Assembly (NCBI GenBank): GCA_037443085.1
Contig: JBBIPA010000002.1
Span: forward strand, 79,658-143,657
Source of the DNA: Chloroflexota bacterium
Lineage (GTDB): Bacteria; Chloroflexota; Dehalococcoidia; GIF9; UBA5629
DNA: 64,000 nucleotides
Direction of reading: 5' to 3'
Shown here: piece by piece, positions 28,676 through 47,733 of the stretch
Numbering within the stretch: the stretch's first letter is position 1
Layout: each line of letters begins with the position of its first letter
The notes under the pieces: generated by a model
What the model was told of the DNA's origin: nothing
Database searches by the model: none
What the model saw: the letters and a program-made list of their open reading frames with translations, nothing else
Made by a program: the position numbers and the translations under genes

Positions 28676-29824
28676 TTACGTGGGAATTTTAAGGGTGCCG
28701 TTCTCCTCCACTAAATCAAACCACCATTTCATTTTCTTGTCCGGTTTACCGTATCCCCAGACATCATCCATTTTGACAATGAGGCTATTCAATGCGGGAG
28801 CATGCTGAATGAGCCAGCGCACGGTATCGTGAATCCCTCCCTGCGGCTTGTTCCAGGGGCAGACCTTGATGCATACTCCACAGCTGGAGCCTTTCTGGTT
28901 GGTAACTCTAAATTTAGTGCAGCGCTCCACATCGAGCTTCCACACCTCGTAGCCATTGTAAACGACCTTATCGCCGGTCGAAATTGCTTTCGAGGGACAT
29001 TTATAGGCACACTTCAGGCATTTCTTGCAGAAGTTCTGGAGGCCGAAGTCGATTGGTTTATCTGGAACCAGGGGCAGGTCGGTAGTGACCACTGCTCCCT
29101 TAAACCGGGTGCCCAGGAAGGGGTTGAGAGCAGCATCACCCAGGCGGCATATCTCGCCCAGTCCTGACAGCACTACTAAAGGAGGCAAAATAACCTGGTA
29201 GTGACGGGCATGGTGAGCCCGTGCTGGATAGCCCAGCTTCCGTATGTAGTCTGCTACCGTGCAGGCGATAAAAGCAGTGGTGGAGTAGCTCATATAGCTC
29301 TGTGACCCGGAAATCCAGTCACGTCCGTTGGAGCCGAGCATGGTGCTGTAATCCTGGTCAACTATGATGACGATGGCATACTGGTGATTGAGCTCAATGG
29401 GCTTGCCATCTCTGGCATGCGTATACACAGCGTACTGAGGCAACTGGCAAATTCCGACCATATCCGCCCGGAGAAAGTAGCACAGACACTTGATATGACG
29501 GCTCAGCATTTCGGGGTCATCGGGAATCGGTGCTTTCTGTGCCGCTACCGGCCCGTCAATGACAGGGCTGAGGTAAGCACACATATTACGCAGGGCAGCG
29601 CCTAAAGGATGCTTCAGCACAAACCGGTCGCCTTCCCGTTTTGCTAGGGTGCCAAAGTCACCACGAATTGCCCGATTAAATCCAGTTTCCCGTTCATCCG
29701 TTCTCTGAATCGGTCCAACGATTCGGGTAGTAATCTGGTCCACCCGTCTCAGCTTTTCCAGTAGAAAGGGGCCTAGCTGCGTTTCCCCGGAGAGGATTTC
29801 GGGATAATCTGCTCGGTTTTTCAT
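28676..29824 (-). CDS. reductive-dehalogenase-family (RdhA/QueG superfamily) corrinoid/FeS protein, cytoplasmic type
   Basis: 382 aa; FCKKCLKCAYKCP and C-x13-CGVCIKVCPWN motifs; RdhA-like middle region (DPEMLSRHIKCLCYFLRADMVGIC); no Tat signal; no adjacent rdhB. Confidence 0.7.
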   Translation of the reverse strand: MKNRADYPEILSGETQLGPFLLEKLRRVDQITTRIVGPIQRTDERETGFNRAIRGDFGTLAKREGDRFVLKHPLGAALRNMCAYLSPVIDGPVAAQKAPIPDDPEMLSRHIKCLCYFLRADMVGICQLPQYAVYTHARDGKPIELNHQYAIVIIVDQDYSTMLGSNGRDWISGSQSYMSYSTTAFIACTVADYIRKLGYPARAHHARHYQVILPPLVVLSGLGEICRLGDAALNPFLGTRFKGAVVTTDLPLVPDKPIDFGLQNFCKKCLKCAYKCPSKAISTGDKVVYNGYEVWKLDVERCTKFRVTNQKGSSCGVCIKVCPWNKPQGGIHDTVRWLIQHAPALNSLIVKMDDVWGYGKPDKKMKWWFDLVEENGTLKIPT

Positions 29825-32426: not shown

Positions 32427-32783
32427 ATGAACAAGAACATAAAGACAGCGGTCATCGTCGGCAGCATCGCCATCTTCATCCTGTTTGTGGTGCCAGCTAT
32501 CTGGGGAGCCGTAGCAGGTTGGAATGGTAGGAGCTGGGGTATGATGGGGCCGGGGATGATGGGTGGTTTTGGTTTTGGCTGGTTCATGCCCATATTCATG
32601 ATTATTTTCTGGGGTCTGATCATCTGGGGCATTGTGGCTTTGATACGTGGCCTGACATCTTCGGGAGGTTCCGGTGCATCAGGAGAGGCTGATTCTGCGC
32701 TGGAAATACTGAAGAGACGATATGCCCGTGGTGAAATCAGCAAGCAGGAATTCGAAGAGAGGAAGAAAGACCTGACAGAATAG
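32427..32783 (+). CDS. SHOCT-domain membrane protein
   Basis: two TM segments plus C-terminal LEILKRRYARGEISKQEFEERKKDL (SHOCT). Confidence 0.65.
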   Translation: MNKNIKTAVIVGSIAIFILFVVPAIWGAVAGWNGRSWGMMGPGMMGGFGFGWFMPIFMIIFWGLIIWGIVALIRGLTSSGGSGASGEADSALEILKRRYARGEISKQEFEERKKDLTE

Positions 32784-36113: not shown

Positions 36114-36202
36114 TGGCGGAGGGGGTGGGATTCGAACCCACGTTCGCTGAAAGCGAAAACGGTTTTCAAGACCGTCGCCATCGTCCACTCGGCCACCCCT
36201 CC
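36114..36202 (-). tRNA. tRNA-Ser (anticodon UGA), type II with long variable arm, CCA encoded
   Basis: rc reads GGAGGGGTGGCCGAGTGGAC...ACGGTCTTGAAAACCGT...TTTCGCTTTCAGCGAAC...GTGGGTTCGAATCCCACCCCCTCCGCCA. Confidence 0.9.
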
Positions 36203-36377: not shown

Positions 36378-38243
36378 TTACTGCAGCAGATTGAGGATGC
36401 TCTCTATGGCAGCCTTGCTGGCGAATGGCTGGTTCTTTTCTATCTTCCTGATGATGCCGGTACTATCGAGAAAGAAGGTTTGAGGCCAACTGGTGATATT
36501 ATAGGTGGATTTCACTACCCCGTCGGAGTCAAGCAAGACCGGGAAGGTATAGCTATTGCTAGTTATATAAGCCTGCGCCTGCGCCTGCGCTGCTGCTGCA
36601 GTCTCCCCAGACCTGACCAAATGAACTGTAAGTACCACCAATGGCTTGGCAGAATATGTTGTGGAAACTGATTGAATATGCGGCATCTCGGTTTTACATG
36701 GGCCACAATCCCAGTGCCAGAAATTAATCATCACCAGCTTGCCTTTGAAGCTGCTTAATGTTACATCCGCACCCTGAAGGTTTTTCAATTTAATATCGGG
36801 AGCTCGATTACCCACCTGGGTACCTACGGGAGTAGTATCTGGCGGTTGCCCTTGTTTCCCAGGAACAAAAGTATAGTCCATTTCATAGATGCCTTTATTG
36901 CCGCTGGCATCCATCGATTCAATGGTAATATGGTATTTTGTATTGAGCTGGATTTTAAGTTTATCAAAAGCTAACACTATAAAATGGTTTTTGACCAAGG
37001 TGGCATCAGGTTCTGCATAAATACACAATTTATCTGGATCACACAGCATGATTTGGCTGGTTGCCTTCTCGTTAGTAGTCCATTCGATAGTGGCAGAGGA
37101 AGCAGTAACATCGGTGACATTTACCTCTGAAACTACCGGCGGAGTTTTATCCAGGGTAGGCGTCGTTGGCGTTGACGGCGGGGAGATTATCTGGCTGACC
37201 ACGAACATTACCATGGCAACGAGCACTGCGGCAACCACAAAAACGGCAGCCAGAAGCCCTATGGGGAAACCACCCCTGCGCTCCCCGCGATACGGCCGTT
37301 CCTTCTTCTCTTTGACCTTAGCTTTTCTTTCTCTTTCAGGATATTCCCCCTCTGCAACAGGAGAGCCTCCCATTTCCGGCGCATACGGTCCATACAAATC
37401 CCGAACCAGACCGCCTGATGAGGCAGTTTCCATTGATGGTGTCATCTGCCCCATTCCCATTGGCGTACCACTTCTTGCCTTCTCTGCCGCGCCGATATTG
37501 TAGCCCTGGGCGCCTGTATGGCGGCTGGGGCCGGAATAGTTGCCGCACTGACGACAAAACCGAGAATCGGCGGGCACAATAGCACCACAGAAGGGACAGG
37601 GACGTCCCACATCCTGCGGATGGGAGAGCTGCTGTTGACCGGCAAAGCTTTGCTGCCGGGGCGGTGGTCCGGTGACATATCCCTGAGATGTGCCGCCAGG
37701 CGGGTGCTGTTGTGGTATCTCATATGTTAGCGAACCAATATAGCCACAATTCTGGCAGCTTCCGGTACGGGGGTCAGCTCTGGCGCCACACCTGGGGCAG
37801 ACATATGCCAGCTTGGCATCATGCGTGCCTGGATATTGCTGCTGAACCGCATACTGCTGGCCTGCCGGTGCAAAATGCCCACCCGTTCCGGGAGCTTGAG
37901 CCGGTGCTGGCTGCTGTTCTCCTCGGGATTGCCCCCCACCAAGGATAAAGCCGCAGTTATGGCAACGCCCGTAGGAAACTATGGTTTTAACCTTGCACCT
38001 GGGGCAAATATTTTCCTTCACTTCAGGAATGCCCGGGGCATGATGAACTGCAGACTCTAATGAGAAACCTCTTGCTTGAGGTTTCCAGGTACGGTCTTCA
38101 AAGCCACAGTAACGACAAATTTTAGAATCGATAATATGCCCACTGGGACATGACCTGGTACCGCACTGGCTACAGACTACCTCGCTGGGCTGCTTGGGCG
38201 CTCGGCAGGCGGGACAAAAGGCGACCTTAGGTCCCAGCGGCAT
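36378..38243 (-). CDS. membrane protein: cytoplasmic multi-zinc-ribbon region, one TM, FN3 domain, C-terminal TlpA/ResA-like thioredoxin (WDCGPC)
   Basis: 621 aa; about six CxxC...CxxC ribbons and a Gln/Pro-rich region; positive-inside TM; FN3 signature VTASSATIEWTTNEKATSQI; KLVMINFWHWDCGPCKTEMP. Confidence 0.7.
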   Translation of the reverse strand: MPLGPKVAFCPACRAPKQPSEVVCSQCGTRSCPSGHIIDSKICRYCGFEDRTWKPQARGFSLESAVHHAPGIPEVKENICPRCKVKTIVSYGRCHNCGFILGGGQSRGEQQPAPAQAPGTGGHFAPAGQQYAVQQQYPGTHDAKLAYVCPRCGARADPRTGSCQNCGYIGSLTYEIPQQHPPGGTSQGYVTGPPPRQQSFAGQQQLSHPQDVGRPCPFCGAIVPADSRFCRQCGNYSGPSRHTGAQGYNIGAAEKARSGTPMGMGQMTPSMETASSGGLVRDLYGPYAPEMGGSPVAEGEYPERERKAKVKEKKERPYRGERRGGFPIGLLAAVFVVAAVLVAMVMFVVSQIISPPSTPTTPTLDKTPPVVSEVNVTDVTASSATIEWTTNEKATSQIMLCDPDKLCIYAEPDATLVKNHFIVLAFDKLKIQLNTKYHITIESMDASGNKGIYEMDYTFVPGKQGQPPDTTPVGTQVGNRAPDIKLKNLQGADVTLSSFKGKLVMINFWHWDCGPCKTEMPHIQSVSTTYSAKPLVVLTVHLVRSGETAAAAQAQAQAYITSNSYTFPVLLDSDGVVKSTYNITSWPQTFFLDSTGIIRKIEKNQPFASKAAIESILNLLQ

Positions 38244-38315
38244 GCTACCGTCCCTCCCTGATCAGACTACTCTGGTAAACCGCTATTGGTTTAGTCGTTT
38301 TCATTTTCCTCGATA

Positions 38316-38708
38316 CTACTGGTTACTATTATTAATTACTTTCGCTGATTGCATGATACATCCACAGGTGGTGCAAAATCCAGAAGCCAGGTCAACAATG
38401 GCACCACATTGAGTGCAGGGAACACCCAATCTAGCGCCGCAACCGGTGCAGAACCGCCTACCTGAACTGTCCTGCAACCCACATTGGGGGCAGTTGACCA
38501 CTTTGTTAGTAGCTTCAACCTTATGCTGTGCTTTGCCAAACCGGCCTGAGCCACAGAGCGCAGCACAATACGGGCAGAATCTGGAATCCGGGGGGACAAT
38601 CTTACTACACTGAGGACAGGACAAACCCAATCTGGTGCCGCAATTAATGCAGAAATTCAAGCCTTTGGCATTCAAGGAATTGCAATTAGTGCATTTAACT
38701 TCTTGCAT
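38316..38708 (-). CDS. multi-zinc-ribbon protein (four ribbons, 130 aa)
   Basis: CTNC...CINC, CPQC...CPYC, CPQC...CTGC, CTQC...CTTC. Confidence 0.6.
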   Translation of the reverse strand: MQEVKCTNCNSLNAKGLNFCINCGTRLGLSCPQCSKIVPPDSRFCPYCAALCGSGRFGKAQHKVEATNKVVNCPQCGLQDSSGRRFCTGCGARLGVPCTQCGAIVDLASGFCTTCGCIMQSAKVINNSNQ

Positions 38709-38929
38709 TGTACTAGCTATCGTACTTTGATACTTTCCCTCTCCCGATATTCATATCTCCGCTCTTTGTATTAGTATATACCATAATACCACATGACTGT
38801 ACTACAATAAATACAGGCAAAGCAAATTGGTCAACTATTTTATCAGACTCTTGACAACCTTAACTAAACTGTGGCATCAGTGCTTACTAATACAGAATGC
38901 TGAGAGGTGAAACTGGCAGCAGCGGTAGA

Positions 38930-40699
38930 TTAGGGGAGAGCATCAAGTGCCTCTTTTATTTGCTGCTGGTTATCGAAACTCCCCAGTTGTATTTTCCGGA
39001 TGATACCGCTGCTATCGATGAAGAAGGTTCGGGGGATTAGGGAAATCTGGTAGTCCCTGACTGCAGTCCTATCAGGATCAATGAAGATGGGCAGGGTCGT
39101 TTTCTGTTCCTGGATAAAATTCCGAATATAGATAGGATGGTCACCAGCATTAATCGCCAGGATTCTTAACCCCTTGGTACCTGCCCATGTTTTATAGACT
39201 GCTTCAATATCAGGCATCTCGGCAACGCAGGCGCCACAGCCTATTGTCCAGAAGTTGACCATCACTATCTTGCCCCGCAACTGGCTCAAGGTGACCGCAG
39301 CACCATCGATGGTATAGACGGTGAAATCGGGGGCACGCTTGCCTACCTCAGGACCTGTGGGAACGGGCGCTTGTGTTCTGAATGGCTGGCTGGCAGCGGC
39401 CACTGCCTCATTTTTCTTAGCATCGCTGGACTTCACTTTGAAGTAGTAGCTTTTGTCAGACTCAAGACCGCTGATAGTAACAGTATGATTGGTAACCAAG
39501 TTTTCATTGGCAGACGTGGTGGAACCGTAAGAAGTGCTCGTTCCGTATTCAATCTGGCTGGTGGCTTTTTCATCCGTCATCCAGGCGATGGTGACGGTAG
39601 TGTCAGAAACATCGATAATCTTAATCCCGGTAATCAGCGGTGGCGTGGTATCGGGAGGCGCAGCGGTGGTAAAATTTCTATCGGTACTGGATTCAGCTTT
39701 CCCACTAGCGTTTTTTGAACTCACTTTGAAATGATACAGCGTATTAGGATTTAGGGCGTTCAGTCTCATTCTATGCTCAGTTCGTAGTTCGGCATCAATC
39801 TCTGTCGAAATACCATAAGTAGTAGTGGTGCCATATTCCACCTGGCTGGTAGCCTTCTCATTGGTCACCCAACTGATGACCACACTCGACTCAGTAATTT
39901 CGGAAACCCTGATGCTGCTGATGGTGGGTGCCGCTATTTCTACAATCGGTGGCTTTGTTTGTGGTGAGGGGGTAGGGCTAGATGGGGTTGACGAAGCAGT
40001 TTGCGGGATATTAGGTCTCACCATAAAAAGGAACATTACCACCGCAATAACGACCAGCGTAAGCACGCCAGAAACAATCGCCTTTTTTACTTTAGAACTT
40101 TCTGTGGATTGGTAATCCCAATCTCTCCTGGGCTGAGCACTTGTTTTCTCGAATACAGAGGCATCCTTGGTAATAGACTTAAGGAAAGGTTCTTTTGAAG
40201 CCACATCTTGCAGTTGAGACGAAGCATACTCTCTATGGTGCGAAGATGATGCTGGCTGAGGCTGTTGTTGGCTTTGAGCTGGTATTGAATGTGATTTGGG
40301 AGTTGATGATGCCACATCCTGAGGAGTCGTTACAGTTGATAACTGGGTCTTATCGTAAGCCCTCCTGAAACGATGGGGCCCCATGTAGCCGCAATTAACA
40401 GCGGTGCACCTTACGCCATATTTATCTGCGACTGGAGCACCACAGCGACCGCACTCGTACTCTATCTTGTGTGTGGTAGCTTCGCTTTCGGAGCCGGTTA
40501 AACCTGCTCTTGATTGTTGTCTGAAGCCAAGGTCTTTCCATCCGCAAGATGAACAAATTCGGGAAGTCATGATATGGCCTTTGGGGCATGACCTGACACC
40601 GCAATTGGAGCAGGTGACATCGTTAGGGCTTTTAGGCTTGCGGCAACTGGGGCAGAAAGAAACATTCGGTCCTGGCGGCAGATTGGATTTCGGCTGCAA
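38930..40699 (-). CDS. paralogous membrane protein: cytoplasmic zinc ribbons, TM, two FN3 domains, TlpA-like thioredoxin (CGAC)
   Basis: 589 aa; same architecture as 36378-38243; FN3 repeats (VISWVTNEKATSQVEYG / VTIAWMTDEKATSQIEYG); KIVMVNFWTIGCGACVAEMP. Confidence 0.7.
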   Translation of the reverse strand: MQPKSNLPPGPNVSFCPSCRKPKSPNDVTCSNCGVRSCPKGHIMTSRICSSCGWKDLGFRQQSRAGLTGSESEATTHKIEYECGRCGAPVADKYGVRCTAVNCGYMGPHRFRRAYDKTQLSTVTTPQDVASSTPKSHSIPAQSQQQPQPASSSHHREYASSQLQDVASKEPFLKSITKDASVFEKTSAQPRRDWDYQSTESSKVKKAIVSGVLTLVVIAVVMFLFMVRPNIPQTASSTPSSPTPSPQTKPPIVEIAAPTISSIRVSEITESSVVISWVTNEKATSQVEYGTTTTYGISTEIDAELRTEHRMRLNALNPNTLYHFKVSSKNASGKAESSTDRNFTTAAPPDTTPPLITGIKIIDVSDTTVTIAWMTDEKATSQIEYGTSTSYGSTTSANENLVTNHTVTISGLESDKSYYFKVKSSDAKKNEAVAAASQPFRTQAPVPTGPEVGKRAPDFTVYTIDGAAVTLSQLRGKIVMVNFWTIGCGACVAEMPDIEAVYKTWAGTKGLRILAINAGDHPIYIRNFIQEQKTTLPIFIDPDRTAVRDYQISLIPRTFFIDSSGIIRKIQLGSFDNQQQIKEALDALP

Positions 40700-40774: not shown

Positions 40775-42040
40775 CTAATCCCGCCTGATGACATCAGTTC
40801 CCATATATGGTCTCAGCACCTCGGGTACTGTTATGCTCCCGTCAGCCTGCTGATAGTTTTCCAGTATGGCGATAACCACCCTGGGTAGAGCCAGCCCCGA
40901 GCCATTAAGAGTGTGTACTAGTTGTGGCTTGGCATTGGCTTCTGGGCGGTAGCGAATGTTGGCACGGCGGGCTTGAAAATCGCCGCAGTTGCTGCAGGAG
41001 CTTACTTCCAGCCATTCACCACAACCCGGTGCCCACATTTCCAGGTCAAAGGACTTGGTAGAGGCAAATCCCAGGTCGCCGGTACATAATTGTACTATCC
41101 GGTAAGGGATATAAAGCTGGCGGCAGATATCCTCGGCATCGTTCACCATTTTATCCAGCTCGGCTACAGAGGTTTCTGGCTCAACGAACTTGTACATCTC
41201 GACCTTGTCGAACTGATGTCCTCTTTTAATACCCCGGGTATCTTTGCCTGCTGCCATTTTCTCGCGGCGGAAACACGCGGTATAAGCAGCATAGTAAATA
41301 GGTAACGTCCCCGGCGGCAATATCTCGTCACGGTGCAAGTTGGTCAAAGGCACTTCGGCGGTGGGCACAAACCACAAATCATCTTCAGTATCGCGGTACA
41401 GGTTGTCGGCGAATTTAGGCAAATTACTGGAGCCTACCAGGCACTCTCGTTTCACCATAAAAGGTGGATAAATCTCCTGATAGCCATGCTGTTTGACGTG
41501 GAGATCGAGCATAAAGTTAATCAGCGCCCGCTGCAGACGAGACCCCAGTCCTTTCAATACATAGAACCGCGTGCCGGAAAGTTTCACGCCGCGCTGAAAA
41601 TCAATAATGTCCAGCTTCTCGGCCAGCTCCCAATGGGGTAGTGGGGTAAACACAAAGCTCTTTGGCTCACCCCAGGAGCGCACTGTAACATTTTCTGTAG
41701 AATCTTTGCCCACCGGCACAGACGGATTAGGGATATTGGGTAGCCGCAGGAGGTAGTCCTCCAGCTCAGACCACATTCTGGCTGTTGCTGCCTCCAGGGA
41801 ATCGATCTGCTCTCCTACCCGGCGCATTTCAGTGATAAGCTCAGGTGGTTTTTCCTTCATCTTGCTAATCTGCCTGCTCACCTCGTTGCGCTTTGCCCGT
41901 AGTGCCTCTGCTTGCTGGAGGGAGTTACGATAGTGCTCATCAAGAGCCAGTATTTCATCCAGCGGCGCATTATCGTTACGGTTTTTTAATGCCTGGCGGA
42001 CTAGGTCTGGCTTTTCCCGGATGGTCTTTATGTCGAGCAT
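40775..42040 (-). CDS. serS: seryl-tRNA synthetase
   Basis: 421 aa; N-terminal coiled-coil arm plus class II core. Confidence 0.95.
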   Translation of the reverse strand: MLDIKTIREKPDLVRQALKNRNDNAPLDEILALDEHYRNSLQQAEALRAKRNEVSRQISKMKEKPPELITEMRRVGEQIDSLEAATARMWSELEDYLLRLPNIPNPSVPVGKDSTENVTVRSWGEPKSFVFTPLPHWELAEKLDIIDFQRGVKLSGTRFYVLKGLGSRLQRALINFMLDLHVKQHGYQEIYPPFMVKRECLVGSSNLPKFADNLYRDTEDDLWFVPTAEVPLTNLHRDEILPPGTLPIYYAAYTACFRREKMAAGKDTRGIKRGHQFDKVEMYKFVEPETSVAELDKMVNDAEDICRQLYIPYRIVQLCTGDLGFASTKSFDLEMWAPGCGEWLEVSSCSNCGDFQARRANIRYRPEANAKPQLVHTLNGSGLALPRVVIAILENYQQADGSITVPEVLRPYMGTDVIRRD

Positions 42041-42057: not shown

Positions 42058-43536
42058 CTACCTTGTCTTGAGCTGTGGGAACAGGATGACATCACGGATT
42101 GACTGTTTATCAGTGAGCAACATCACTAAACGGTCTATGCCCACGCCCAGACCTCCTGTCGGTGGCATACCATATTCTAAAGCCAGCAGGAAATCATCGT
42201 CAATGACCTCTGCTACTTCATCTGTCTGAGGGCGTCCCTCAAGCTGGTGATGGAATCTCTCTTCCTGCTCCAGGGGATTATTAAGCTCAGTGAAGGAATT
42301 GGCTATTTCCATGCCGCCGATAAAGGCTTCAAAACGTTCCACCAGATTCTGGCTACCTGGCTTCATTTTAGCCAGGGGTGACATCTCCACGGGATAATCT
42401 ATCAAAAAGGTAGGCTGTATCAGATTAGGTTCCACAAAAGTTGATACCAGCTCATCTATGAGCCGGCCCCTATCTTTTTTCGGGTCCACCTCGATTCCTT
42501 TCTGCTCCATCTTCTTTCTCAAGGAATCAGTGTTGGGATATTCTTCGAAATCGACGTCCCCGAATTTCTTGACGGCTTCACGCAGGGGAAGGCGTTGCCA
42601 GGGAGGTTCCAGCTTAATGATGTCAGCGGCGAATGCTATTTCAGCTGTGCCAACAACGTCTCTGGCAATTGCGTACACCATGTTCTCGACCAGCTTCATC
42701 ATGACGTCATAATCGGCGTAAGCCTGGTAACATTCCATCATGGTGAACTCAGGATTATGCTTGATGGATATACCCTCGTTGCGGAACACGCGCCCTACTT
42801 CGTACACTTTATCAAAACCACCCACTATCAGGCGTTTGAGGTAAAGCTCTAGCGCAATACGCATGTAGAGGTCCTGGTCAAGCGCATGGTGATGGGTGAC
42901 AAAGGGTCGAGCCAGTGCACCGCCAGCCATGGGCTGCAATACTGGCGTTTCCACCTCAATAAATCCCTGTCCATTAAGGAAACTACGCAAGGCGTTAATG
43001 ACCCGGCTGCGGCAGACGAACACAGGTTTGGTTTCCTCATTGGATATCAGGTCCAGATAGCGTTGCCGGTAGCGTTTCTCGACATCTACCAGTCCATGCC
43101 ACTTCTCAGGTAACGGGTGAAGAGATTTGGAGAGCAGACTGAAATCGGCTGCCTGCAGCGTTATTTCACCGGTTCTGGTGCGGAAGAGCTTACCGGTAGC
43201 ACCGATAATATCTCCGATATCCAGGTCATGGAGCAACTGATATTTCTCATCACCAAGGAGGTCACGGCCGAAAAGGACCTGAATTTTGCCGGAACCATCG
43301 CGGATATCCATAAAAGCTATCTTGCCCATGAAACGGCTGGCAGTAATCCGCCCGGCCAGGCTAAATTCCAGTTTGGAAACTGCTTCAGCTTCTTTCTCTT
43401 GCTCGGTGAACAGAGCCACTGCTTCCTGCGTGGTGTGACTGCGGTGGTATTGGTTGGGGTAAGGGTTTACGCCCTGAGACTGAAGCTTCTTCAGCTTCTC
43501 CAAGCGCTGCTCGACAATGCGCTCTAACCTCGACAT
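42058..43536 (-). CDS. lysS: lysyl-tRNA synthetase (class II)
   Basis: 492 aa; OB anticodon-binding domain plus class II motifs. Confidence 0.95.
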   Translation of the reverse strand: MSRLERIVEQRLEKLKKLQSQGVNPYPNQYHRSHTTQEAVALFTEQEKEAEAVSKLEFSLAGRITASRFMGKIAFMDIRDGSGKIQVLFGRDLLGDEKYQLLHDLDIGDIIGATGKLFRTRTGEITLQAADFSLLSKSLHPLPEKWHGLVDVEKRYRQRYLDLISNEETKPVFVCRSRVINALRSFLNGQGFIEVETPVLQPMAGGALARPFVTHHHALDQDLYMRIALELYLKRLIVGGFDKVYEVGRVFRNEGISIKHNPEFTMMECYQAYADYDVMMKLVENMVYAIARDVVGTAEIAFAADIIKLEPPWQRLPLREAVKKFGDVDFEEYPNTDSLRKKMEQKGIEVDPKKDRGRLIDELVSTFVEPNLIQPTFLIDYPVEMSPLAKMKPGSQNLVERFEAFIGGMEIANSFTELNNPLEQEERFHHQLEGRPQTDEVAEVIDDDFLLALEYGMPPTGGLGVGIDRLVMLLTDKQSIRDVILFPQLKTR

Positions 43537-43539
43537 ACG

Positions 43540-44007
43540 CTAGCTTACTTCCATTACAAGCAACTTCAGCAATCCTGCGGGAGTTTTGACTTCAACTTTA
43601 TCACCTGTTTTCTTGCCTAACAGGGCACGACCAACGGGTGACTCATTGGAGATCTTTCCCTCCACAGGATTGGCTTCAGCGCTACCAACAATGGTGAATT
43701 GTTCAATCTTCCCATCCTGGTTCTGGATAAGTACTTTATCGCCCAACTCTACCATGCCGGGAGCAGCAGGCGCCTCTATGATAACGGCATTCTTGATCAG
43801 ATTTTCCAGCATGAGGATTCTACCTTCAACAAAAGCCTGCTCATTCTTGGCATCATCGTATTCAGCATTATTCTCGGTACCGCCCACCTCACGCGCCCGC
43901 TTAATCTTTTCAGCAACCTCGGCGCGCTGAACTGTGGTGAGCTGTTTTAGCTCCGCTTCCAGTTTGGTCAGCCCCTCTTTAGTAAGGTGTATTTTTTTCT
44001 GTGCCAT
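43540..44007 (-). CDS. greA: transcription elongation factor GreA
   Basis: 155 aa from ATG 44005-44007 (after GGAGGCAT); coiled-coil N-terminus with acidic tip, FKBP-like C-terminus. Confidence 0.9.
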   Translation of the reverse strand: MAQKKIHLTKEGLTKLEAELKQLTTVQRAEVAEKIKRAREVGGTENNAEYDDAKNEQAFVEGRILMLENLIKNAVIIEAPAAPGMVELGDKVLIQNQDGKIEQFTIVGSAEANPVEGKISNESPVGRALLGKKTGDKVEVKTPAGLLKLLVMEVS

Positions 44008-44153
44008 GTAATGCCTCCGCTTGACAGGTAGTAAAAAAGACTGAGAGCACAAAGCTCTCAGTCGGCGGATAAAACTTGCCTAACATTATAGGCCGCTTTA
44101 AGTTAATTGTAAAGAGTGATATAATACCCAAGCTTTTCTCACAGGAGGATTCC

Positions 44154-45574: not shown

Positions 45575-46246
45575 TTATTTCGCGGTGCAAGCAGCATTTT
45601 TATCCAGATTGCACTGGAGGGCCCAGATGTCAGCTTTACACTCTGAATGTGGAGCCCCGGTGATTCCCCAATCGCCACCACCACCGGCACTGCGGCGGTC
45701 GCTGTTGCCGAAGTGGTTCGGATGCTTGTCGGAGAATTTGGGGGTGCTGTTAATGAAGTCACCTTCACTCTTGCCGCCCCAGCTCTTGTTGGCGAAAGCC
45801 AGGCTCACGCCCCAGCACTTGGCACAATGCGCAAAGCCAACGATTGCCTTGGGAGCGCAGCCCTTGTCAGCGGGGGGCAACTGACAGTCACCGGTGCCTG
45901 GGCATTCTTTGGATACTTTGCAGACAACGGGGTCAGTGCAGCCTCCGAGGTTGCCAAACTGGTCATTGCAAGCGGCACAGTTGCCGAAGCAGGAACCGGG
46001 ATTGGGTTCCAAGGTACACCCGGTAAGAACCGCGGGATAGGCACCTCCGGCTAGTCGGGACATGGCAGTGATTGGAGTTTTACCCCAGTTATCCAGATAC
46101 AAGAAGCAGGAAAGAGGGTTATTCTCCCACTTTACAGTCTCCCAGTTGCAATCCTTATCCAGCGAACTCTGCGCCAGGACAGGAGCAGGGAGCACTACCA
46201 GAGACAACGCCAGCACAGCAAACAGAATGCCAGCAACTTTCCTCAT
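45575..46246 (-). CDS. secreted cysteine-rich protein (about 20 Cys) of unknown function
   Basis: ATG 46246 after AAAGGAGGTGA; N-terminal signal peptide MRKVAGILFAVLALSLVVLPAPVLA; many CxxC/CxC spacings. Confidence 0.5.
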   Translation of the reverse strand: MRKVAGILFAVLALSLVVLPAPVLAQSSLDKDCNWETVKWENNPLSCFLYLDNWGKTPITAMSRLAGGAYPAVLTGCTLEPNPGSCFGNCAACNDQFGNLGGCTDPVVCKVSKECPGTGDCQLPPADKGCAPKAIVGFAHCAKCWGVSLAFANKSWGGKSEGDFINSTPKFSDKHPNHFGNSDRRSAGGGGDWGITGAPHSECKADIWALQCNLDKNAACTAK

Positions 46247-46435
46247 GGTTTCGTCACCTCCTTTCATATGGTGTCGCCATTTTACAGGGTAAAAAAACGC
46301 TTGTCAATAGGCGAAGTGGGATTTGTTCTTGAAAATCACAGTAACAAAAGATACAATTACGGCTTGCCGTGTGCAATTTGCCTGCCAGTGAGTTTGAAAC
46401 CTGATCAGGCAAAAATCTTAAGGAGGGAAGGTGAT

Positions 46436-46813
46436 TTGAATGCTCTCGGACGACACTTACTACTAGAACTGAAAGATTGCAACCAGGAGTTAATTAACGA
46501 TGTAGAATCTCTTAAGAATCTTCTTTGCGAAACTGCCGAGCATATCGGTGCCACTGTAGTCAATCAGGCTTTCCATAAATTCAGCCCACAGGGGGTAAGC
46601 GCCGTAGTCGTTATTGCCGAGTCCCATATTTGTATTCACACCTGGCCAGAATATAATTACGCTGCCGTAGACGTTTTTACCTGTGGTAATTCAATTGACC
46701 CCACAGATGCCATAGATTTGCTGGTCGAACGATTAGAAGCCAAAGAGTCGTCGTTCATCGAGCTAAAGCGGGGATTATTGCAGGATGATAAGGTTATTTG
46801 TGGCATAAAATGA
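46436..46813 (+). CDS. speH: S-adenosylmethionine decarboxylase proenzyme (small SpeH type)
   Basis: TTG start 8 nt after AAGGAGGG; ...AESHICIHTWPE... processing-site Ser motif; followed by speE. Confidence 0.8.
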   Translation: MNALGRHLLLELKDCNQELINDVESLKNLLCETAEHIGATVVNQAFHKFSPQGVSAVVVIAESHICIHTWPEYNYAAVDVFTCGNSIDPTDAIDLLVERLEAKESSFIELKRGLLQDDKVICGIK

Positions 46814-47733
46814 GCCATTCAGATAATTTTGATAGTGCTATTTGGCTGCATGATAAGGTCACTCCTGACCTCATTCAGATTCACAGCATCAAGCAGGTGC
46901 TGTACTCAGGACGTACCGACTTTCAATCGGTAGAGATTATCGATTCTACCACCTTCGGCATTTGTCTGGTGCTGGATGGTAAAATCCAATCGAGCGAGCG
47001 TGATGAGTTTATTTACCATGAAGCACTGGTGCACCCTGCCATGCTCAGTCACCCCAATCCTGAGACTGTGTTCATTGCTGGTGGTGGCGAGGGCGCTACA
47101 TTGCGTGACGTGCTCTACCATAAGAGCGTAAAAAAAGCGGTCATGGTGGATATTGATAAACAGGTAGTGGAGATTTGCCGCCGCTCTCTCCCCGCCATAC
47201 ATCAGAATTCCTTTGACGACCGCCGAGCAGAGATTCATTTTACTGATGCCCGGAAATATCTGGAGGAAACCAAAAATAAATTCGACATTATCATCATTGA
47301 CCTGGTCGAGCCTCTGGAAGTCGGACCTGCCTGCTTGCTTTATACTCAAGAGTTCTACCAGCTAATAAAAGACAGGTTGCATAATGGAGGCATTATGTCT
47401 GTCCAATCTGGAGCCTCCGGCTGGACCAACCTGGAGAACTTTATTGCTATTGTGAACACTCTGAAAAGTGTCTTTACTACAGTCTGTCCCTACCAGGTTT
47501 ATGTTCCGTCATTTGTTGACCTGTGGGGTTTTGCCACTGCTTCCCAGAGCCTCAATCCAGCAATGCTTTCGCCAGACGAAATAGACCGCAGAATCTCTCA
47601 AAGGCTCTCTCAAGAATTGAAATCTTATGATGGGCTTAGCCACCGATCGCTGTTTGGTCTCTCCAAGCATCTGCGCCAGATGCTGGCGAAAGCAGATAAA
47701 ATCATCACCGATGCCAATCCGCTTTTTATGTAA
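46798..47733 (+). CDS. speE: spermidine synthase
   Basis: 311 aa; GGGEGATLR and VDIDKQVVE motifs. Confidence 0.85.
   Translation: MWHKMSHSDNFDSAIWLHDKVTPDLIQIHSIKQVLYSGRTDFQSVEIIDSTTFGICLVLDGKIQSSERDEFIYHEALVHPAMLSHPNPETVFIAGGGEGATLRDVLYHKSVKKAVMVDIDKQVVEICRRSLPAIHQNSFDDRRAEIHFTDARKYLEETKNKFDIIIIDLVEPLEVGPACLLYTQEFYQLIKDRLHNGGIMSVQSGASGWTNLENFIAIVNTLKSVFTTVCPYQVYVPSFVDLWGFATASQSLNPAMLSPDEIDRRISQRLSQELKSYDGLSHRSLFGLSKHLRQMLAKADKIITDANPLFM

Follow-up and report, generated by a model that had tools for sequence, protein, structure and literature searches.

What do cytoplasmic zinc ribbons contribute to a thioredoxin that lies on the other side of the membrane? This question is raised by three co-oriented genes in a 64,000-nt stretch of DNA (the window) from a Chloroflexota bacterium of the Dehalococcoidia (contig JBBIPA010000002.1, positions 79,658 to 143,657). 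Two of the genes encode proteins of 621 and 589 residues (A621 and C589) that carry zinc ribbons, a transmembrane (TM) helix, FN3 domains and a thioredoxin domain, and the gene between them encodes a soluble ribbon protein of 130 residues (B130). An initial annotation of the sequence had suggested that A621 and C589 form a transmembrane redox-sensing or redox-relay module. The explanation that we favor, with modest confidence, is that they are CcdA-dependent surface disulfide reductases carried on FN3 stalks and tethered to a cytoplasmic zinc-ribbon scaffold. The three genes and their domains are as follows (ORF, open reading frame; AF2, AlphaFold2).

38930-40699, minus strand: C589, ORF call with a TTG start; zinc ribbons, TM helix, two FN3 domains and a TlpA/ResA-like thioredoxin (paralog 1, C-type)
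40088-40699, minus strand: C589 predicted cytoplasmic region, residues 1-204; two-site N-module, third ribbon, then a Q/P/S-rich linker
40016-40087, minus strand: C589 TM helix, residues ~205-228, from hydropathy and charge; no Cys
39380-39943, minus strand: C589 predicted extracytoplasmic stalk of two FN3 domains (Pur_ac_phosph_N-type), from Pfam
38933-39361, minus strand: C589 thioredoxin-fold domain, from Pfam, phmmer against the PDB and invariant columns
38316-38708, minus strand: B130, ORF call; soluble four-ribbon protein (2x DZR)
36378-38243, minus strand: A621, ORF call; five zinc ribbons, TM helix, FN3 domain and a TlpA/ResA-like thioredoxin (paralog 2, A-type)
37269-38243, minus strand: A621 predicted cytoplasmic region, residues 1-325, from AF2 and the Cys pattern; ends in a K/R/E-rich juxtamembrane stretch
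37188-37262, minus strand: A621 TM helix, residues 328-352, from hydropathy and AF2; no Cys
36864-37151, minus strand: A621 FN3-like β-sandwich, residues ~365-460, from BLASTP to the second FN3 domain of C589 and AF2
36381-36836, minus strand: A621 thioredoxin-fold domain, from Pfam, Foldseek and invariant columns

Domain organization of A621 and C589

BLASTP aligned A621 with C589 over both their N-terminal parts (43% identity across 100 residues, E 5e-23) and their FN3 and thioredoxin parts (33% identity, E 2e-41), confirming that the two proteins are paralogs. Pfam searches identified an AhpC-TSA/Redoxin domain at residues 476-605 of A621 (E 8e-23) and a Redoxin domain at residues 452-584 of C589 (E 3e-24), with Redoxin/AhpC-TSA matches across the two proteins ranging from E 1e-18 to 1e-24. 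Two fn3/Pur_ac_phosph_N domains were found at residues 258-437 of C589 (fn3, 48 bits, E 1e-12; Pur_ac_phosph_N, 69 bits, E 4e-19). The FN3 domain of A621 was not detected by Pfam and is instead supported by its alignment with the second FN3 domain of C589 and by a β-sandwich in the AF2 model.

The AF2 model of A621 was built from an alignment with 27 homologs. In this model the N-terminal module (N-module, residues 10-55) is compact, with predicted local distance difference test (pLDDT) scores of 91-94, and the ribbons at residues 77-100, 146-175 and 213-240 reached 80-91. Residues 58-76, 103-144, 178-210 and 242-325 were modeled as disordered Q/P/G-rich linkers (pLDDT <50). These regions are followed by the TM helix (328-352), the β-sandwich corresponding to FN3 (371-458, pLDDT 91-97) and a thioredoxin fold (470-621, pLDDT 92-96).

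Hydropathy analysis revealed one hydrophobic helix each in A621 and C589, and neither helix contains a Cys residue. The charge distribution in A621, with 11 K/R residues ahead of the helix and 1 behind it, indicates an N-in orientation. Both proteins are predicted to be anchored by an N-in single helix with the ribbons inside and the FN3 and thioredoxin domains outside. The domain order and the ribbons-inside topology had been proposed from the sequence; Pfam, the charge bias and AF2 agree with both, and the check by hydropathy and charge did not put the ribbons outside the cell. Two details required revision. The cytoplasmic region had been put at about 300 residues in both paralogs, which suits A621 (~325 residues) but not C589 (only ~205 residues). 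In addition, the thioredoxin domains had been called periplasmic. Their position outside the membrane stands, but the host is presumed to be a monoderm by analogy with cultured Dehalococcoidia, and extracytoplasmic is therefore the better term.

The cytoplasmic region of A621 contains four C4 sites (C10/13/24/27, C80/83/94/97, C149/152/163/166 and C216/219/230/233) and one C-H-C-C site (C32/H36/C43/C46), and that of C589 contains three zinc sites (C16/19/30/33, C38/H42/C49/C52 and a third ribbon, C83/86/98/103). The Pfam DZR score of A621 (34.4 bits) exceeded the threshold of 27.3; no DZR match was obtained for C589 at E up to 0.1. Nevertheless, the eleven ligand Cys residues were invariant or nearly so among 22 homologs of both paralog lineages, with H42 only partly conserved. 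The cytoplasmic region of C589 shares only ~36% identity between orthologs, the zinc ligands being kept while the linkers diverge. Spacing of the ribbon Cys residues is regular, CxxC-x(10-13)-CxxC, as in structural zinc sites, and AF2 predicted the knuckle folds with confidence. The N-module comprises two fused zinc sites with the motif CPxC..PK.PN...C..CG.R.CP.GH...S.IC..CGWED, and is followed by the third ribbon, Y.CP.CGA....C.NCGY.G.

An N-module profile was searched exhaustively with HMMER against 1.84 billion representative proteins, yielding 106 matches below 1e-10. Nearly all proteins that matched the module end to end at their N-terminus were FN3-redoxins, and the remaining matches were generic multi-ribbon proteins. 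Of the 12 proteins retrieved by a word-indexed search with the N-module alignment, most were fragments of this family. By these profile searches the N-module constitutes a distinct, lineage-specific sequence family. Two other contexts were seen. P0177 (383 residues, from a metagenome) has a DnaJ J-domain, then the N-module, then C-terminal TM segments, and P0197 (309 residues) joins an unrelated N-terminal domain to the N-module; these two proteins hint at a chaperone or protein-interaction context. A ZAS anti-sigma factor identity was considered for the ribbons and rejected, as there was no zf-HC2 match and the spacing is H-x6-C-x2-C versus H-x3-C-x2-C in ZAS proteins; no sigma factor gene, such as the adjacent ECF sigma gene expected for ZAS, was present among the called neighbors.

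The active site of A621 is WDCGPC at residue 513 (C513-GP-C516-KT-E519, cis-Pro P587), and that of C589 is GCGAC at residue 488 (C488-GA-C491-VA-E494, cis-Pro P556). The signature FW-x2-4-C-x-x-C-x-x-E-x-P, in which the Glu corresponds to Glu80 of ResA, and the cis-Pro motif P-x-T-F were invariant in 22-27 homologs, and the CxxC, Glu and cis-Pro columns were invariant or at least 90% conserved among the 22-27 serS-linked A- and C-type sequences. Because the regular expression for the thioredoxin motif also caught the ribbon motif F.GKICPYCGWEDP, such false positives were excluded from the scan. The best phmmer match in the PDB was B. subtilis ResA (1st9, E 6e-21), followed by S. pneumoniae Etrx2 and Etrx1 and by StoA, and Foldseek aligned the A621 model with ResA (1su9/1st9) at a TM-score of 0.91 (E 1e-12). 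AF2, Foldseek and Pfam all indicate the TlpA-type thioredoxin fold with its central insertion. From these data we conclude that both proteins possess TlpA/ResA-like thioredoxin domains with CGPC or CGAC active sites, as had been proposed. They are not orthologs of the named members of this family by the NCBIfam cut-offs, with scores for the two domains of 85 and 105 bits for ResA (NF002854, cut-off 170), 64 and 62 for StoA (210), 42 and 37 for TlpA (230), and 28 and 34 for DsbE (123). Weak NCBIfam matches to the WAxxUGC and SelL-like families had raised a link to selenoproteins, which was dropped because the active sites contain Cys and the nearby tRNA is tRNA-Ser(UGA), not a selenocysteine tRNA.

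A further Cys pair, C401/C407 (37023-37043, minus strand), lies in a β-hairpin of the FN3 domain of A621 within the motif LCDPxGxCxW. A-type orthologs conserve this pair, which stands where other FN3 copies have EYG...YG and probably forms a structural disulfide within an otherwise reducing enzyme.

Comparison with known systems places A621 and C589 among membrane-anchored thioredoxins with several departures. ResA of B. subtilis, together with StoA and rhizobial TlpA, has the same thioredoxin sub-fold, the CxxC with a Glu three residues on and the cis-Pro; it likewise has an N-terminal membrane anchor and a catalytic domain outside, for which reduction by CcdA is expected. However, ResA is a protein of ~180 residues with a short signal-anchor, whereas A621 and C589 add a multi-ribbon region of 200-325 residues and one or two FN3 domains, the active-site dipeptide is EP in ResA versus GP in A621 and GA in C589, and a regular-expression scan showed no resBC/ccs context at the A621/C589-type loci. 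Thioredoxin 2 (TrxC) of E. coli carries an N-terminal zinc finger with two CxxC motifs, a site for which redox sensitivity has been proposed. TrxC thus resembles A621 and C589 in having a CxxC-CxxC zinc module and a thioredoxin in one polypeptide, but both of its parts are cytoplasmic and contiguous, whereas in A621 and C589 they are separated by the membrane.

The Etrx1/Etrx2-CcdA-MsrAB2 system of S. pneumoniae uses paired surface TlpA-like thioredoxins to repair oxidised surface proteins (PMC3914529). Etrx1/Etrx2 and the SdbA/SdbB proteins of S. gordonii are, like A621 and C589, paired TlpA-like surface thioredoxins of a monoderm. The Etrx proteins are fed by CcdA and act on non-cytochrome substrates, and the Etrx/SdbA-SdbB system, with 32-33% identity over the aligned thioredoxin domain, was among the top structural matches. 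Unlike A621 and C589, the Etrx proteins are lipoproteins that lack a cytoplasmic domain and FN3. The Etrx system also includes MsrAB2, whereas no msrAB gene was seen adjoining the A621/C589-type clusters. On the cytoplasmic side, N-terminal zinc ribbons followed by a TM segment occur in B. subtilis YdjG and in PspC homologs (PMC11237479), and in H. volcanii CdpC the cytoplasmic ribbons mediate FtsZ1 binding and membrane tethering (bioRxiv 10.64898/2026.07.16.738847). All of these resemble A621 and C589 in that the cytoplasmic side bears small C4/C3H ribbons, in many cases joined to long stretches of disordered linker. The likeness is an analogy, with no homology demonstrated, and the N-module described here was found almost only on FN3-redoxins.

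Conserved gene blocks and the proposed surface reductases

Relatives were searched in GTDB with one genome per species, and 86 loci totaling more than 1 Mb were fetched, in which gene blocks were defined by profile searches over all ORFs. Full-length C589-type homologs (44-54% identity) occur in Chloroflexota/Dehalococcoidia metagenome-assembled genomes (MAGs) and in many metagenomes; A621 orthologs include P0104, P0105, P0093, P0086, P0108 and P0135. All relatives that matched beyond the thioredoxin domain came from Dehalococcoidia-type MAGs except one (L052), a short contig binned as Saccharibacteria; elsewhere the thioredoxin domain alone matched. Each Dehalococcoidia-type genome carries 4-8 TlpA-like paralogs. 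Database entries name these proteins only as redoxin domain-containing proteins, or mislabel them as CcmG or peroxiredoxin, and a full-text literature search found no description of the architecture, of B130 or of the bracket formed by serS and tRNA-Ser. The architecture is not rare; it is a conserved feature of Dehalococcoidia that has neither a name nor a characterized member, and the possibility raised in the initial annotation, that it might prove to be an already-named family with a cytochrome c maturation role, does not apply. A 798-residue multi-TM fusion in L019 was discarded as an ORF-calling artefact over a masked run of X.

Two gene blocks were recognized. In the first (~20 loci), serS is followed by a small soluble ribbon protein of 110-143 residues, a redoxin of ~560 residues (ribbon-TM-(InlB-repeat)-FN3-redoxin) and a redoxin of ~620 residues (ribbon-TM-FN3x2-redoxin). 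In the clade of the window the order is serS, C-type, B-type, A-type (L001-L007, L085/L086). Overall, serS adjoins a ribbon-redoxin cluster in more than 25 loci, and free-standing versions of the ribbon module adjoin serS in ~20 loci.

The second block consists of ccdA, a 167-residue redoxin, a ribbon-TM-FN3x2 pseudo-redoxin and then one or two more redoxins. In 13 Dehalococcoidia-type loci a ccdA gene lies directly 5' of a redoxin cluster, and exactly this order is found in 11 of them; the CcdA of these sister clusters matched Pfam DsbD_TM (E 4e-18). At least 6 MAGs contain both blocks and therefore CcdA together with the serS-type cluster. In the sister subfamily linked to ccdA the ribbons have been kept and the CxxC lost, the active site reading FWQNVQQCRNELS or FWQDIQQSRNELS (QQCRNE or QQSRNE). 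These pseudo-redoxin genes were seen at L032:9362-11005, L009:7054, L016:9359, L028:9401, L030:9098, L034:9362, L035:9302 and L041:1086, and their product is likely a pseudo-enzyme or adaptor within the CcdA pathway. In Anaerolineae, Aggregatilineales and Phototrophicaceae genomes we observed CcdA-redoxin fusions of 547-655 residues (DipZ-like) followed by a redoxin of ~185 residues (L060, L065, L066, L068, L070, L073-L075, L078, L080, L082 and L083); these sister classes of the Chloroflexota arrange the same pathway differently.

In the explanation that we favor, A621 and C589 would be thiol-disulfide reductases of the TlpA/ResA-like family that are anchored in the membrane in type-II (N-in) orientation and act outside the cytoplasm, and the FN3 stalks would hold their thioredoxin domains above the membrane of the presumed monoderm. 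A621 (CGPC, one FN3 domain) and C589 (CGAC, two FN3 domains) would probably differ in their substrates or in their distance from the membrane. Reducing equivalents would reach the thioredoxin domains via a separate CcdA-type protein, in the source genome as well, and not via the helix of the enzyme itself. Likely targets would be non-cytochrome surface substrates, with the pneumococcal Etrx-CcdA-MsrAB2 system as the nearest functional analogue. The cytoplasmic parts would resemble beads on a string, with structural zinc ribbons on disordered Q/P/S-rich linkers, and by analogy may serve as a scaffold for protein interactions, tethering or clustering the enzymes and binding a candidate cytoplasmic partner. 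B130 would most likely bind the same partner as these tails, or the tails themselves.

Several observations argue that the ribbons are an autonomous module: their ligands are fixed while the linkers diverge, they occur free-standing and fused to a J-domain, and they are kept in the pseudo-redoxins. Other points weigh against the proposal. No CcdA is encoded within the 64-kb window. TlpA-like domains can also be oxidants or isomerases, so the sequence does not fix the redox direction. Finally, the N-module is nearly exclusive to FN3-redoxins, which points to a functional coupling of ribbon to redoxin more specific than a generic anchor would call for.

B130 and the surroundings of the triad

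B130 lies between the paralogs and consists of four ribbons, as had been proposed: Pfam detected two DZR units (77.7 bits, E 7e-22, threshold 27.3), and its eight CxxC motifs form four zinc sites with no hydrophobic segment. It aligned with the N-module by hhalign (probability 98.8%, E 1.4e-16, 112 columns), so B130 shares ancestry with the module that A621 and C589 carry on the cytoplasmic side, and the three genes can properly be called a paralogous triad. In A-type proteins, moreover, the fifth ribbon is similar to ribbon 2 of B130, down to the trailing SGSGR motif. In the two closest genomes, ortholog identity was 79-80% for B130 versus 50-56% for A621 and 49-51% for C589, and 83-85%, 80-82% and 86-87% for SerS, LysS and GreA, respectively. 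B130 is therefore conserved about as strongly as SerS and far above A621 and C589. Its inter-ribbon linker GSGRFGKxQHK was invariant in 21 sequences (20 orthologs), yet it was the lowest-confidence part of the AF2 model of B130 and was not folded. Such a combination is typical of a binding motif, and the linker is a putative one. In many genomes a different small ribbon protein occupies the position of B130.

The features that surround the triad are as follows.

43540-44052, minus strand: greA, upstream of lysS
42058-43536, minus strand: lysS, upstream of serS
40775-42040, minus strand: serS, conserved upstream boundary of the block
38773-38828, minus strand: block of ~55 nt 5' of B130, from alignment; contains TGTGGTATTAT; sequence …TTTGCTTTGCCTGTATTTATTGTAGTACAGTCATGTGGTATTATGGTATATACT
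36114-36202, minus strand: tRNA-Ser(UGA), from ARAGORN and Rfam, conserved downstream boundary of the block

The gene order in the window is greA-lysS-serS-C589-B130-A621-tRNA-Ser(UGA), and the position of the three co-oriented genes 3' of greA-lysS-serS on the minus strand was confirmed; other neighbors include sucCD. A co-oriented tRNA-Ser(UGA) gene was present 3' of the block in 16 of the 24 loci checked. In 12 of these it lies ~70-1,400 nt from the last redoxin gene (70 nt in L042, ~1.34 kb in L012), and in L010, L015, L029 and L044 it is 2-6.5 kb away; it was absent beside the block in L002, L005 and L006. Besides the window, at least 12 loci have the block bracketed by serS and tRNA-Ser (L007, L008, L012, L013, L015, L018, L019, L020, L025, L038, L042 and L045). 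Co-transcription, or an ancestral serS-tRNA-Ser pair split by insertion, are possibilities for the origin of this synteny. The tRNA was the sole Rfam match in the window, which therefore contains no T-box or riboswitch.

The 38773-38828 block was almost invariant in L001, L002, L005, L007 and L085; outside it, the spacer could not be aligned. Its 34-nt core was exact in L001, L002, L003, L005 and L006, with 1-3 substitutions in L007 and L085. The block is unique in the window, where 0 chance occurrences were expected, and its TGTGGTATTAT resembles an extended -10 element. Because this near-invariant block stands in an otherwise unalignable spacer and is unique, it is probably a dedicated promoter/operator of B130. 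A generic promoter scan of the window did not rise above the shuffled background, and the 15 terminator-like sites counted in the window, somewhat more than the background of 7.9 ± 3.0, included none relevant to the triad. B130 is the most intriguing unexplained part of the locus and its strongest open thread.

Several other neighbors deserve mention. A 230-residue protein with a signal peptide, 16 invariant Cys residues and no Pfam match is encoded at 45575-46267 (minus strand; L002:4427-5083; L004:1880-2536). It is ~71% conserved and syntenic, lying between speE/speD and a DUF2007 gene ~5 kb from the triad, and is a possible disulfide-rich substrate of the extracytoplasmic thioredoxins. The ORFs at 46268-46813 and 46798-47733 correspond in position to the AdoMet decarboxylase and spermine synthase genes of L001, and 32427-32783 encodes a small TM protein whose C-terminus is a SHOCT domain; SHOCT together with AdoMet decarboxylase/spermine synthase domains has been reported in PSP-type envelope-stress neighborhoods (PMC11237479). 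At 28676-29824 (minus strand) lies the gene for a 382-residue protein in which Pfam matched nothing but a C-terminal 2x[4Fe-4S] ferredoxin domain, and which could be a QueG-like or reductive-dehalogenase-like enzyme.

Alternative explanations and significance

The relay suggested by the initial annotation would carry electrons or a signal from the cytoplasmic ribbon Cys residues through the protein to the thioredoxin outside. Cys-rich parts on both sides of the membrane do share one polypeptide, and the near-exclusive pairing of the N-module with FN3-redoxins also speaks for such a function. However, the single helix contains neither Cys nor any other redox-active residue, whereas DsbD and CcdA have a multi-helix core with two essential TM Cys residues; it is DsbD, CcdA and DipZ that supply such a relay, feeding a TlpA-like domain across the membrane, and the paired TM Cys are found here in the separate CcdA genes of the sister clusters. 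The ribbons persist in the subfamily that lost its CxxC and occur apart from redoxins, free-standing and on a J-domain protein, and their Cys spacing and confident knuckle folds are those of structural zinc sites. Because the helix lacks Cys, the ribbons outlast the CxxC and occur on their own, and a true relay protein, CcdA, is encoded in these lineages, we regard this proposal as extremely improbable. The parallel with oxidation-activated holdases or redox switches such as Hsp33 or M. tuberculosis Ruc, by which zinc lost under oxidative stress would expose a chaperone or clustering function at the membrane, hardly fares better and is very unlikely. Ruc, which is ubiquitous in Chloroflexi and becomes active on oxidation, combines a zinc ribbon with an intrinsically disordered tail (PMC7448276); A621 also alternates ribbons and long disordered segments in its AF2 model, and one relative joins the module to a DnaJ J-domain. 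No similarity to Ruc or Hsp33 emerged from the Pfam and NCBIfam scans, however, and there are no chaperone genes in the neighborhood, so that the case is one of analogy. It is improbable, though less so, that A621 and C589 are ResA/CcsX/TlpA orthologs for cytochrome c (or Cu-center/Sco) maturation to which the ribbons are an irrelevant addition. The best NCBIfam and PDB matches are to ResA, JGI pipelines label some homologs CcmG/DsbE, CcdA adjoins the sister clusters, and some respiratory chain exists, since succinate dehydrogenase with cytochrome b is encoded in a related MAG. Against this, the scores fall below the ResA, TlpA and DsbE cut-offs, and 4-8 TlpA-like paralogs per genome are far above the need. 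A regular-expression (not profile) scan for ORFs with the WWD motif of CcsA/ResC/CcmC/F found none in the window or in the 86 loci, which include the flanks of ~55 Dehalococcoidia-type loci, and the only two multi-CxxCH ORFs near Dehalococcoidia clusters were ribbon-redoxin genes themselves. The earlier view that these are not plain cytochrome-maturation TlpA proteins is upheld by the low ResA scores and the missing WWD ORFs.

Of the alternatives, the one to which we allow the most room, while still considering it unlikely, is a partner switch involving B130. The thioredoxin and FN3 domains outside would sense thiol-redox state or a substrate, and the tails would sequester or release B130 to act on a core machine, much as a membrane anti-sigma factor holds its sigma factor. 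B130 is a paralog of the tails encoded between them, is conserved at the level of housekeeping proteins with an invariant unfolded linker, and is preceded by a near-invariant promoter-like block of its own; B130 ribbon 2 with its SGSGR is mimicked by the fifth ribbon in A-type proteins, serS and tRNA-Ser bracket the block in many genomes, and the pseudo-redoxins fit a sensor or receptor. On the other hand, A621, B130 and C589 have no recognizable output domain, the adjacent genes include neither a sigma factor nor a regulator, one helix with long disordered linkers would pass conformational signals poorly, and a different small ribbon protein replaces B130 in many genomes. For redox sensing, the other half of the initial suggestion, the data weigh neither way, and a sensing or partner-switch role that involves B130 is conceivable. 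The more specific version, in which the tails and B130 compete for or bind a core cytoplasmic machine and so couple surface thiol-redox state to translation or transcription, is suggested by the serS/tRNA-Ser bracket, the conservation of B130 and the promoter-like block, and has a slightly slimmer chance of being correct.

We thus return to stalked, CcdA-fed surface reductases as the preferred explanation. The catalytic domain is of a known kind and its enzymology is as expected, zinc-ribbon fusions are promiscuous, and the locus reveals no new route for electrons across membranes. What is new is the fusion of a redoxin to a specific multi-ribbon module, the soluble paralog B130, and the bracket of serS and tRNA-Ser conserved among Dehalococcoidia-type MAGs. 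These results correct the automated CcmG/DsbE or peroxiredoxin labels of ribbon-redoxin genes. They also offer a concrete case for asking what role is played by the common but opaque N-terminal zinc ribbon plus TM modules of monoderms, and A621, B130 and C589 form a defined candidate trio for interaction studies and redox biochemistry. Dehalococcoidia are abundant and largely uncultured, and those in culture are bounded by a minimal S-layer envelope that lacks peptidoglycan. The locus shows that in these bacteria stalked surface thioredoxins form a conserved set with several paralogs.

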